Shown here: positions 1 to 39,693 of the stretch, in pieces
How positions within the stretch are numbered: position 1 is the stretch's first letter
Layout: each line of letters opens with the position of its first letter
From: a virus
Length of the DNA: 39,693 bases
Reading direction: 5' to 3' (one strand)
UHGV virus genome: UHGV-0150678
Translations under genes and position numbers: made by a program
The notes under the pieces: generated by a model
What the model saw: the letters and a program-made list of their open reading frames with translations, nothing else
The model's database searches: none
What the model was told of the DNA's origin: nothing

Positions 1-107
1 TTATTAATCTGGTGAAGTTTTTCCTCTGTCATTACGTCATGGTCGATTTCAATTTCTATTGATGCTTTCCAGTCGTAATCAATGATGTATTTTTTGATGT
101 TTGACAT
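1..107 (-). CDS. 5' part of a leftward early gene running off the window start (N-terminus MSNIKKYIIDYDWK...)
   Basis: ATG at 105-107 on the minus strand with GAGGA about 9 nt upstream; reading frame still open at position 1. Continues in frame with the minus-strand ORF at 39432-39693 if the sequence is circular. Confidence 0.4.
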   Translation of the reverse strand, partial: MSNIKKYIIDYDWKASIEIEIDHDVMTEEKLHQIN

Positions 108-125
108 CTGTTCATATCCTCATAG

Positions 126-155
126 ATAAAAAACTGCCCTCACACTGGAGGGCAA
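126..155 (-). terminator. Rho-independent terminator within the leftward early operon
   Basis: Stem TGCCCTC/GAGGGCA (135-141 with 148-154), loop ACACTG, followed on the minus strand by a T6 run (complement of A128-A133). Confidence 0.5.
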
Positions 156-246
156 AGAAGATTTCCAATAATCAGAACAAGTCGGCTCCTGTTTAGTTAC
201 GAGCGACATTGCTCACATAGCAGACTCGCAAATCTGCTATAGGTGC

Positions 247-405
247 TTATTCGCATCGCATGACAACATCAAATTTTTTGAGATTACTTTGTCGCAACAA
301 TCCCTCTTCTACGCGGTCAGCTTTTCTATAATTATCAAATTCGAAATGTTTAATTACTTCTTTCGTTTCTCGCTCTATAACTTCAACGATGTATTTCTTA
401 TTCAT
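247..405 (-). CDS. Small hypothetical protein (52 aa, MNKKYIVEVIERETKEV...)
   Basis: Not in the ORF track (under 60 aa). ATG overlaps the stop of the upstream 405-674 gene (TAATG), suggesting translational coupling; same leftward operon. Confidence 0.3.
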   Translation of the reverse strand: MNKKYIVEVIERETKEVIKHFEFDNYRKADRVEEGLLRQSNLKKFDVVMRCE

Positions 406-674
406 TACTCATCACCTATGGCTTTTTTGATAGCTTCGCGAGCCTTATTAACAGCCCCATACCATTCTGGATATGTTGTCGTTGTTCTATTTTCGGCTTG
501 CTTAAGTAATAACTGAAGTGCTTCAAGTAAATCCGGTGCAGCCATAGCTAATCTTCCATTTGCTACGGCCTCTTCTGTTTCTTTACCGGATAGGGCCATT
601 CCCGGGTGTGAAAATAAAATTAAGCCTGCAAATTGGCTTCTCGCCAATTTTTTCCTAGTACCTTTAAATTCCAT
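405..674 (-). CDS. Hypothetical early-left protein (89 aa)
   Basis: ORF track; co-oriented with N in the leftward operon, in the slot lambda uses for ral/sieB-type accessory genes. Family not recognised. Confidence 0.55.
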   Translation of the reverse strand: MEFKGTRKKLARSQFAGLILFSHPGMALSGKETEEAVANGRLAMAAPDLLEALQLLLKQAENRTTTTYPEWYGAVNKAREAIKKAIGDE

Positions 675-761
675 GTTAGCCTCTGTTGTTTATGCCAAAA
701 GAAGGCCGACTATGCGGCCTGTGATGTTAGATTTACTTTCATTTTTGAACGGCAGCTACAA

Positions 762-1025
762 TTATGATGGAATGTACAAAACCACTTTCCAGTTCATAGA
801 AGTGGATGATGGCATAAAATAATCCCACGACTCGTTAGCTACTAACTCTTTATTAACTGTGGTGGCAGCAATTTCGGCACCACCTTTATTATTAAAAATG
901 TCGTTCGAATACTGACATTTTCCATCTGCATGCACATATAAAATATCATATGTCTCTGTATCGTAATCACCACTTATGTCTCTGATAACAATTCCTGGCT
1001 TCAATGATTTAATTTTCTTGTCCAT
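762..1025 (-). CDS. Hypothetical early-left protein (87 aa)
   Basis: ORF track; immediately downstream of N on the leftward transcript. Family not recognised. Confidence 0.55.
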   Translation of the reverse strand: MDKKIKSLKPGIVIRDISGDYDTETYDILYVHADGKCQYSNDIFNNKGGAEIAATTVNKELVANESWDYFMPSSTSMNWKVVLYIPS

Positions 1026-1033
1026 ATATCACC

Positions 1034-37315: not shown

Positions 37316-37326
37316 AGGCGATACCG

Positions 37327-37815
37327 TTATTTGATAAGAAGTGAAGGTTTCCCAACTTTGAGTTGAGCACCGGGAATATTTATTCCTGCTTTTAGTTGGT
37401 GTTTGATTGCCAGTTTGTCGGCTTTAATTGTCGTTTCAAACTCAACGTATTCAGGAGGAAGGGCGCTTGAGTCGATGATTTCTACAGTTTCTGACGGTTT
37501 GCGGATTGTTACCTGGTGAATACCTGCTCGAATCTTTTTCTTGCCAACCATTTCAAGCGATGACGCTATATACGCCATAATGCTATCAATCTTATTTTGA
37601 ATTACTGCTGCTCGTTCATTCAGTGACTTTGCCTCTTCCTTGAGGCGTTCAGCATAACCAGATTCATTTTTAATAATGGCGAGAAGTTGCTCTATTTTAT
37701 CGGTAAATTCTCCTTCCATTCCTTCTATTGTGTCAGCAATCATCTCTGGTTCTAAATCTGAATCCATCAATTTTGCGTATTCATTGGCAATTTCATACAG
37801 TTTGCTCACTGGCAA
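37327..37815 (-). CDS. Gp157-family (Sipho_Gp157-like) recombination-associated protein
   Basis: 162 aa, coiled-coil rich, immediately downstream of recT with overlapping ends; N-terminus SKLYEIANEYAKLMD fits the family pattern. Confidence 0.5.
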   Translation of the reverse strand: MPVSKLYEIANEYAKLMDSDLEPEMIADTIEGMEGEFTDKIEQLLAIIKNESGYAERLKEEAKSLNERAAVIQNKIDSIMAYIASSLEMVGKKKIRAGIHQVTIRKPSETVEIIDSSALPPEYVEFETTIKADKLAIKHQLKAGINIPGAQLKVGKPSLLIK

Positions 37816-38695
37816 CCTCCAGTTTCGCTTTGCATTCTATGTAAATGGCTTGTACGTTCTGCTGCAATTTCATTCCAGATGTCAGGCGATATGCTTCTGC
37901 AAAATATCGCTTCAAATCATCCATGTTTTCTGCCTGAGCCATTTCATCGCAAAGAAGTTGTGCTTTATCCATTATTTCCTGCTGGCGTTTCCGTTCATCT
38001 TCGCGGATATCTTCCTCTGATTTGTGCGGCATAACTGGTTCCTGATGCATACCTTCATCTTCGTTAAGCAGGTGAATGGCATTATCCAGTCGCTGGGCTT
38101 TAGGCCAGTATTTGCTGGCGCGTTTAACTATTGTTTTACGCGCCATCTCTTCCCAGAATGTTTTCCACGGTCCATTCTTTGCCTTGCTCGTTGCTTCAAC
38201 TGCTTTAATTTCTGCCAGACTCATTTCTTCAGTCAGGTAGTCACCATCTGCTGTTTTAACCGTGCAATAACCTCCAACAATAGAGCCTCGCTCACCAAAT
38301 GCGTTGTATTTGTGGGTTGGTGCTGAATCAAGGCCATTTGATTCATAGGTGTCGTTTGAGTACACCAGTTTGCATTGCCCCCACTTAATTGATCCTGTCG
38401 ATTGCGCAAGATGAAGTAATCCCATGTAACTGATATCAAGGCACACCATGCCTTCGCGAGGAACCAGATAAGCCAGTTTGCTGGCCGGGTTTAAGGTGAT
38501 GCCGATCGCCGCAACATTGATAATGGCGTTCTGTGCGCTGGTTGGATTTGCCAGTGCCGTTTTAGCCAGGTAATCATTTTTCTGGAAATACTGAATTGCA
38601 AACTGGCTTTCCTTAGCCCATGTCAACGCCTGTTCAGTCAATGCTCCGCAGAATAACTGCTCCTGCTGTTTAACGAATTCAACGATATTGCTCAT
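37793..38695 (-). CDS. recT: RecT-family single-strand annealing recombinase
   Basis: 300 aa; core AAIGITLNPASKLAYLVPREG...GYCTVKTADGDY is typical of RecT; sits in the bet position. Confidence 0.85.
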   Translation of the reverse strand: MSNIVEFVKQQEQLFCGALTEQALTWAKESQFAIQYFQKNDYLAKTALANPTSAQNAIINVAAIGITLNPASKLAYLVPREGMVCLDISYMGLLHLAQSTGSIKWGQCKLVYSNDTYESNGLDSAPTHKYNAFGERGSIVGGYCTVKTADGDYLTEEMSLAEIKAVEATSKAKNGPWKTFWEEMARKTIVKRASKYWPKAQRLDNAIHLLNEDEGMHQEPVMPHKSEEDIREDERKRQQEIMDKAQLLCDEMAQAENMDDLKRYFAEAYRLTSGMKLQQNVQAIYIECKAKLEVASEQTV

Positions 38696-39003
38696 GCTGC
38701 TTCTCCATAAATGTGTCTGCGTTTGAATATTGCGAAGGCATATTCAGCCTTAACTCTTTCGGTTATTGCATCCCAGAACCATTCAGCGGCTTTTTCCTGA
38801 TAGTTACAGTCATCATCTTCCAGCCAGTCGATAGCGTCCTTAGTGTGTTCATCTGGTTTATATGAGCGAAGCATTTCGCTTATTGGGTCGCAACGTTTGC
38901 AGAGGCGATCAACTTCACTGTTGATTCGTCCGTAATCTTCATCAGTAAAACTTGCGATTATTTGCGATATTTCACGCTTATCATTCAGAGTCAGAATCAT
39001 CAT
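38692..39003 (-). CDS. Hypothetical protein (103 aa)
   Basis: ORF track; upstream of recT in the leftward operon. Confidence 0.5.
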   Translation of the reverse strand: MMILTLNDKREISQIIASFTDEDYGRINSEVDRLCKRCDPISEMLRSYKPDEHTKDAIDWLEDDDCNYQEKAAEWFWDAITERVKAEYAFAIFKRRHIYGEAA

Positions 39004-39084
39004 CTTTCTCCTGTTCTTTGTGCTGATTGAGCATTTTGTTCATCTGACGAATGAATTCTTCGTCTGACCAGTTATCTGTAAAAC

Positions 39085-39237
39085 TCATTTCCTGCGATAC
39101 CACGGAAGATTGATAGCTGATTTCATCGCTTTATTTGCTTCAAGCCACATTTTTGAATCACCAATAAATCGGGCTATTACTGCTTTGTTCTGTGCTGCAC
39201 GAAGCATCTGGTGATTGATGGCTATTTCATTGCGCAT
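39085..39237 (-). CDS. kil: Kil-like small protein (50 aa)
   Basis: Not in the ORF track. MRNEIAINHQMLRAAQNKAVIARFIGDSKMWLEA... resembles my recollection of lambda Kil (...ATFIGDEKMFREA...); GGAGG 4 nt upstream. Confidence 0.4.
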   Translation of the reverse strand: MRNEIAINHQMLRAAQNKAVIARFIGDSKMWLEANKAMKSAINLPWYRRK

Positions 39238-39356
39238 AACGCCTCCAGTTGTTTCTTTGCTGCTCTGATTAATTGTTTAACTCGGCGTGATAATTCAGAT
39301 TCGTGCGGGTAGAAAGCGGACATGACGCCGCTACCCGCGAGCTGAAAGTGCATCAT
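39222..39356 (-). CDS. cIII: cIII-like small protein (44 aa)
   Basis: Not in the ORF track. MMHFQLAGSGVMSAFYPHESELSRRVKQLIRAAKKQL parallels lambda CIII (AIAGWPVAGCPSESLLERITRKLRDGWKRL); AAGGAG 6 nt upstream. Confidence 0.4.
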   Translation of the reverse strand: MMHFQLAGSGVMSAFYPHESELSRRVKQLIRAAKKQLEALCAMK

Positions 39357-39431
39357 GGGTAACTCCTTATATTTGATTGCATAACGAAAACGCCTCGAGT
39401 GAAGCGTAATTGGTATGCGGTAACGCCGCGC

Positions 39432-39693
39432 TCAGGCGGCTTTGATAGTCATATCATCTGGATCAAATATTCCTGATGTATCGATATCGGTAATTCTTAT
39501 TCCTTCGCTACCATCCATTGGAGGCCATCCTTCCTGACCATTTCCATCATTCCAGTCGAACTCACACACAACACCATATGCATTTAAGTCGCTTGAAATT
39601 GCTATAAGCAGAGCATGTTGCGCCAGCATGATTAATACAGCATTTAATACAGAGCCGTGTTTATTGAGTCGGTATTCAGAGTCTGACCAGAAA
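39432..39693 (-). CDS. 3' part of a leftward early gene whose frame is open to the window end
   Basis: Track ORF 39432-39629 extends without a stop to 39693, in frame with the ORF at 1-107 across the junction. Confidence 0.45.
   Translation of the reverse strand, partial: FWSDSEYRLNKHGSVLNAVLIMLAQHALLIAISSDLNAYGVVCEFDWNDGNGQEGWPPMDGSEGIRITDIDTSGIFDPDDMTIKAA

Follow-up and report, generated by a model that had tools for sequence, protein, structure and literature searches.

The virus genome record UHGV-0150678, a stretch of 39,693 nucleotides (nt) analysed here at its full length and called the window, begins and ends inside the same apparent gene, ea10, and this raises the question of whether its ends are the limits of a piece of chromosome or the place where a circular phage genome was cut to be written as a line. 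A sequence-only reading of this DNA had favoured a phage genome that is complete and either circularly permuted or excised, over a chromosomal slice, and that interpretation is supported by the join between the two ends, by the phage attachment site (attP) and by colinearity with integrated prophages. Very probably, the window holds the genome of a temperate CUS-3-like, P22-like podovirus of Escherichia coli K1 at exactly one unit length (39,693 bp), its circle having been opened arbitrarily in ea10.

The split gene and its joined product

The two ends of the window contain the following parts of ea10:

1 to 107, minus strand, 5' part of ea10 (DUF2528), with the start codon at 107-105, codons 1-35 and two bases of codon 36
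39432 to 39693, minus strand, 3' part of ea10 (DUF2528), with the last base of codon 36, codons 37-122 and the stop codon at 39434-39432

The minus-strand ATG corresponds to the plus-strand CAT at 105-107, and its frame is open to position 1, where two bases are left over; the minus-strand stop corresponds to the plus-strand TCA at 39432-39434, and its frame is open to 39693, where one base is left over. Joining 39693 to 1 gives the junction codon AAT and an open reading frame (ORF) of 369 nt, which encodes 122 amino acids (aa) followed by the stop. The remaining two minus frames are closed within 17 and 49 nt at the right end, and at positions 1 and 29 at the left end. The coordinates, frame, junction codon and protein length given by the sequence-only reading were all reproduced exactly. 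No base is missing and none is duplicated at the join, and comparison of the two window ends shows neither a direct overlap of 10 nt or more nor end-to-end BLAST similarity. The absence of host-like genes at the ends, also pointed out in that reading, extends to the whole window, which contains no host genes and no tRNA genes; no Rfam family reaches its gathering score in it.

A database comparison of the joined 122-aa protein had been proposed as a check, and it returns an exact public sequence with a full-length DUF2528 domain. The joined product matches profile positions 1-104 of the 104 of Pfam DUF2528 with 158.5 bits (E 8.4e-47), the curated cut-off of this family being 22 bits, and the join falls at residue 36 of Ea10, within the domain. 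At least 1000 contigs of a public collection encode exactly these 122 aa, as does the intact ea10 of two E. coli prophages in the integrated state (L134 and L135). Ea10 of a lambda isolate differs from it in one residue, and lambda has ea10 placed as in the window, between N/ral and cIII in the leftward pL operon. By these matches the joined protein is a full-length homologue of DUF2528/lambda Ea10, and the two parts of ea10 read as one gene across the window origin.

The DNA of the join is contiguous in relatives. The 45 nt on each side of it align, gap-free at the join, to five relatives, which are contiguous at this point without insertion or deletion: the prophage of E. coli SCU-124 (NZ_CP051706.1, 1445.2-1484.9 kb, at argW, the strain A42 prophage likewise), STK78-E, AST240, mEpX2 and a lambda isolate. 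A 32-mer that spans the join (16 + 16 nt) is found exactly in at least 120 IMG/VR viral contigs. For nucleotide comparison, a 2-kb query was made of the last 1000 and the first 1000 bases of the window, and single alignments cross it in mEpX2 (query positions 346-1214), STK78-E (1-1214, 98.7%) and AST240 (1-1543), the last covering window 38694 through the join to 543 in one piece. The longest continuity is shown by one of the two prophages with the identical protein (L134, integrated in E. coli GCA_018554915.1), which corresponds to window 33223 to 39693 and on from 1 to 214 in one high-scoring segment pair of 6,685 nt at 99.955% identity.

The attachment site

The att region of the window contains three features:

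33201 to 33222, attP core, the 22 nt common to attL and attR of the SCU-124 prophage
31889 to 33082, minus strand, IntS-type tyrosine integrase gene, with DNA 100% identical to the intS region of argW-integrated E. coli prophages
33296 to 33496, minus strand, gene for a TorI-type excisionase (recombination directionality factor), whose DNA is 99.4% identical to the torI annotated in the SCU-124 prophage

Within the core, the 16-nt sequence ATGGTGTCCCCTGCAG (33207-33222), which occurs once in the window, is the published 16-nt core of the recombination module of KplE1, CUS-3, HK620 and Sf6 at argW, and the target of this attP is argW, a tRNA-Arg gene. In SCU-124, attL reads ...gatgATAAATGGTGTCCCCTGCAGacatctacttgaagcgg... 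and attR, the 3' end of argW, reads ...gagcgaactgATAAATGGTGTCCCCTGCAGgaatcgaacc.... The sequence in the window is ...gagcgaactgATAAATGGTGTCCCCTGCAGacatctacttgaagcgg..., that is, the phage arm of attR, the core and the phage arm of attL, so that the left arm of attP is the phage side of the SCU-124 attR and the right arm is the phage side of its attL. Many E. coli chromosomes show matches of 100% identity that run from the tailspike gene through intS and end at window 33222, beside the tRNA-Arg gene. The window thus holds a single intact attP in the non-integrated configuration; because this site is intact, and its arms are split between attL and attR in the integrated relative, the window is not the integrated form. 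A slice of an integrated prophage was considered and rejected, as the window has attP without attL or attR, and the core only once.

The integrase and TorI-type excisionase genes of the KplE1/CUS-3/HK620/Sf6 module flank attP on opposite sides, and the window shows the same distribution. The excisionase gene (33296-33496) has no Pfam match, and its assignment is by DNA identity to torI only.

An exact 16-nt copy of GGAATCGAACCTGCAA is located at 33516-33531, 294 nt beyond attP and just upstream of the excisionase start. In the host gene argW, GGAATCGAACCTGCAA is the tRNA segment next after the att core, and about 0.01 chance matches to it are expected in the window. This copy may have been left by an earlier att site, or by an attP in which the tRNA-derived stretch was longer.

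Colinearity with an integrated prophage

Rotated at 33222, the window runs colinear with the SCU-124 prophage over the whole distance between attL and attR, rotated positions 1 to 39693 corresponding to positions 3230 to 42873 of the prophage locus (L002). This alignment covers 34,292 of the 39,693 nt, the remainder being mosaic replacements, and the prophage has a length of ~39.6 kb, compared with the 39,693 bp of the window, which contains one complete, non-redundant set of modules with one copy of each. Identity to SCU-124 is 99.6% for window 4121-20939, 98.9% for 21264-31003 and 100% for 30946-33222. SCU-124 differs from the window in being integrated, in having an intact ea10 where the window is cut, and in its immunity region and several ea/nin-type modules. 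Only SCU-124 shows a gene encoding a homing-endonuclease-like protein with a NUMOD4 domain, between the gp10 and gp26 homologues; this gene (L002 30166-30711) faces the window gap between 20939 and 21264 and is absent from the window.

The sequence-only reading had described the gene order as wrapping naturally around the ends, and the order N, small ORFs, ea10, the join, ea10, cIII, kil, orf and recT is indeed that of the integrated relatives. In the map of the prophage the break is at att and ea10 is uninterrupted; in that of the window the break is in ea10 and att is uninterrupted. Each linear map is therefore interrupted inside the other, which is the signature of circular permutation and requires a circle. 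From this signature we infer that the DNA behind the window was physically circular or circularly permuted. Three origins would look alike at the level of sequence: assembled headful virion DNA, an excised or replicating circle, and a rotated record. Tentatively, the second can be put in a more specific form, less likely than not, in which an excised or replicating circle came from a lysogen or a metagenome and not from purified phage, the phage, a CUS-3-like K1 podovirus with lambda immunity and BstA in place of rexAB, is absent from the collections searched, and the cut in ea10 is a break in the assembly graph at a module that co-resident lambdoid prophages share, like the contig ends of two draft assemblies within 45 nt of this point.

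The cut inside ea10 is a bookkeeping artefact without biological meaning. The window is to be handled as a complete circular genome, with ea10 annotated as one gene across the origin, and a search of the record for missing flanks or host junctions is unwarranted. More conventional starts for the record are attP (33201-33222) or the small terminase gene (12733).

Other explanations for the matching ends

A very improbable explanation is a head-to-tail array, either a tandem double lysogen in a chromosome or a replicative concatemer in a long read, of which the window would be one unit length and in which the two ends match as the copies are identical. The boundary between tandem prophages is an attP-like junction, as found in the window, and SCAID URN1-2021 (L007), with intS-torI crossing att and duplicated holin/lysis/nin modules ~40.8 kb apart, indicates that such arrays or assemblies exist. 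However, the window is exactly one unit, with no base lost or doubled, one att core and no host sequence at its ends, and a piece cut anywhere from an array would not come out at precisely one unit. An array of this kind is equivalent to the circle in what its sequence contains.

A false closure is very improbable. In this case the contig ends would lie in an ea10 repeated among co-resident lambdoid prophages, and the genome would be chimeric or incomplete. Several observations point in this direction and weigh against a single circular genome. The 2-kb join stretch is matched in 2272 of 5426 complete E. coli genomes, in up to six places per genome, and the contigs of two draft E. coli assemblies stop inside ea10, one at window 34 (L137) and the other at window 39648 (L138). 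The L134 prophage, which follows the window across the join, diverges at window 214, so that the module to the right of this point differs from that of the best left-side relative. A further point against the single circle is that no relative in the collections searched is near-identical over a long distance on both sides of the join. Against a false closure, the two halves give an exact known protein without gap or overlap, each module is present only once, and the length is that of a whole prophage. Moreover, AST240 has the right-side arrangement contiguous with ea10 (window 38694 to 543), and attP is crossed unbroken in the window, unlike in the assembly of an integrated lysogen. A single unit-length circle opened in ea10 is the reading retained here.

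The ea10 junction stretch is likely a repeat-induced assembly breakpoint, because it is found in up to six places per E. coli genome, and this may be the reason why the window opens there. The prophages of the two draft assemblies are 99.3-99.99% identical to the window, and their breakpoints lie within 45 nt of the window cut. A 40-mer specific to the window (34700-34739) had no match in IMG/VR, in the JGI metagenomes or among the GTDB representative genomes, and exact-protein look-ups gave only integrated prophages in E. coli assemblies. Among the complete E. coli genomes no identical prophage was found, and the best match to window 1-4500 covers 83% of it.

A linear chromosomal slice with a coincidental frame match, in favour of which there is only the one-third prior for agreement of the frames, has negligible probability and is refuted by the full-length DUF2528 match, the exact database protein, the join-spanning 32-mer in at least 120 contigs, the intact attP in place of attL and attR, and the absence of host genes. 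Of the one-in-three chance of coincidence that the sequence-only reading had allowed, the prior itself stands, but the caveat is dropped because the joined product is a full-length known protein and the DNA of the join is contiguous in relatives.

CUS-3-like relatives, tailspike and neuO

Two genes that lie one after the other ahead of the integrase gene match CUS-3:

27844 to 30789, plus strand, tailspike gene (981 aa), encoding a P22 head-binding domain fused to a K1 endosialidase
30943 to 31649, plus strand, neuO, polysialic acid O-acetyltransferase gene, with 8 AAGACTC heptads at 30948-31003

The closest phage records are CUS-3, Kapi1 and phiv205-1, to which ~48-60% of the window aligns at ~97% identity; this coverage is partial, which makes the window a new mosaic within a known kind of phage. 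CUS-3 (CP000711.1, Lederbergvirus) is a K1-specific prophage of E. coli RS218. Both CUS-3 and the window show a P22-type virion module, a 981-aa K1 endosialidase tailspike, neuO with AAGACTC heptads, an int gene that adjoins the att core, integration at argW and a genome of ~40 kb. They differ in the order of the record, which in CUS-3 is that of the prophage from the attL core and in the window is the excised order cut in ea10, and in the number of neuO heptads (19 in CUS-3 and 8 in the window). Measured against near-complete coverage at ~95% identity or more, the level for a single species, the window and CUS-3 do not belong to the same one. The window is a CUS-3-like K1 phage of the same genus-level type (Lederbergvirus), with a mosaic different from that of CUS-3. 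It adds one further mosaic CUS-3-like K1 phage with the phase-variable capsule O-acetyltransferase NeuO, and raises no new biological question.

The neuO gene and its 5' AAGACTC heptad tract lie between the tailspike gene and int. With 8 heptads, the frame opened by the ATG at 30943 is not that of the hexapeptide-transferase body and reaches a stop after ~38 codons. By this count neuO is in phase OFF in the window, and one further heptad would restore the frame. The neuO repeat tract of SCU-124 is ~117 nt (~17 heptads) longer than that of the window, a value taken from alignment offsets and not from counted repeats.

A gene of the Mnt/Arc family (27446-27697, minus strand) is located directly before the tailspike gene, and the stretch 27446-27844 contains no antirepressor (ant) gene. 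CUS-3 and the L007 prophage show an ant gene at the tailspike side, whereas the window has none between mnt/arc and the tailspike gene. L007 (NZ_CP082824.1, 1518172-1562991) is a related K1 P22-like prophage in an E. coli chromosome record, with intS and torI joined across att, a holin/lysis module that is duplicated at a distance of ~40.8 kb, and an inverted copy of nin genes. It could be a tandem or rearranged prophage, or circular phage DNA assembled into the chromosome.

The pL operon and the immunity region

The operon cut by the window ends, and the immunity region beside it, show these features:

1617 to 1589, minus strand, lambda-pL-like promoter, TTGACA-17-GATACT
1034 to 1438, minus strand, gene for antiterminator N, the first in the leftward pL operon, within which the join falls
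720 to 703, minus strand, terminator-like hairpin in the pL operon
134 to 155, minus strand, terminator-like hairpin with a T run just upstream of ea10, by consensus match only
39222 to 39356, minus strand, cIII (44 aa), the pL operon gene that comes directly after ea10
39085 to 39237, minus strand, kil, in the pL operon
1840 to 2745, minus strand, abortive-infection defence gene BstA (PADLOC BstA, E 1e-105), between cI and pL
3593 to 3621, lambda-type pR, with hexamers of the lambda type

The pL operon, which is antiterminated by N, contains, in this order, pL, N, further genes, ea10, cIII, kil, recT, further genes and xis, with ea10 located ~1.6 kb downstream of pL. The product of cI (2832-3545) matches the lambda repressor (PDB 3BDN, 518 bits), and judged by these elements the immunity region is that of lambda. 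The BstA gene sits where rexAB lies in an otherwise lambda immunity region. The exact BstA protein is present in 1445 blocks of the contig index, and in the eight places shown it is found beside lambda-type or other repressors.

Packaging genes and proposed life cycle

The genes for packaging and virion assembly, and the recombinase gene of the pL operon, are distributed as follows:

12733 to 13260, plus strand, small terminase gene (Terminase_2), whose last 35 residues match the Sf6 gp1 C-terminus
13257 to 14672, plus strand, large terminase gene, with a product near-identical to Sf6 gp2 (PDB 4IDH, 1050 bits, residues 1-456)
14674 to 19128, plus strand, P22-type portal, scaffold and coat genes
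37793 to 38695, minus strand, RecT recombinase gene, with a probable circularising role

The large terminase can be assigned to the headful clade of Sf6 gp2 and P22 gp2. Sf6, as documented by Casjens et al. (2004), and P22 package by headfuls with terminal redundancy, and for P22 circularisation of the injected DNA needs Erf. By analogy, the phage of the window probably packages its DNA by a headful mechanism, from which it would follow that its virion DNA is terminally redundant, circularly permuted and without fixed ends, and assembles as a circle. The injected DNA would circularise by recombination across the terminal redundancy, with RecT possibly taking the circularising role of P22 Erf, as recT is located in the position of erf. 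The circle would then either integrate through IntS, by recombination of attP with argW, or replicate and be packaged. The pL operon is read straight across the site where the record was cut.

The small terminase matches Pfam Terminase_2 over residues 3-151 and SF6/SPP1-type structures (3ZQP) over residues 3-76, whereas the match to Shigella phage Sf6 gp1 (3HEF/4DYC) is limited to the C-terminus of gp1 and to the last 35 residues of the window protein, which looks chimeric. This C-terminus may be the contact for the Sf6-type large terminase encoded by the adjacent gene. Sf6 aligns to ~30% of the right half of the window at ~93% identity; it has essentially the same large terminase (gp2) and the same IntS/TorI module with attP between int and xis, and differs from the window in the tailspike, in the O-antigen/capsule modification gene and in the DNA-binding domain of the small terminase.

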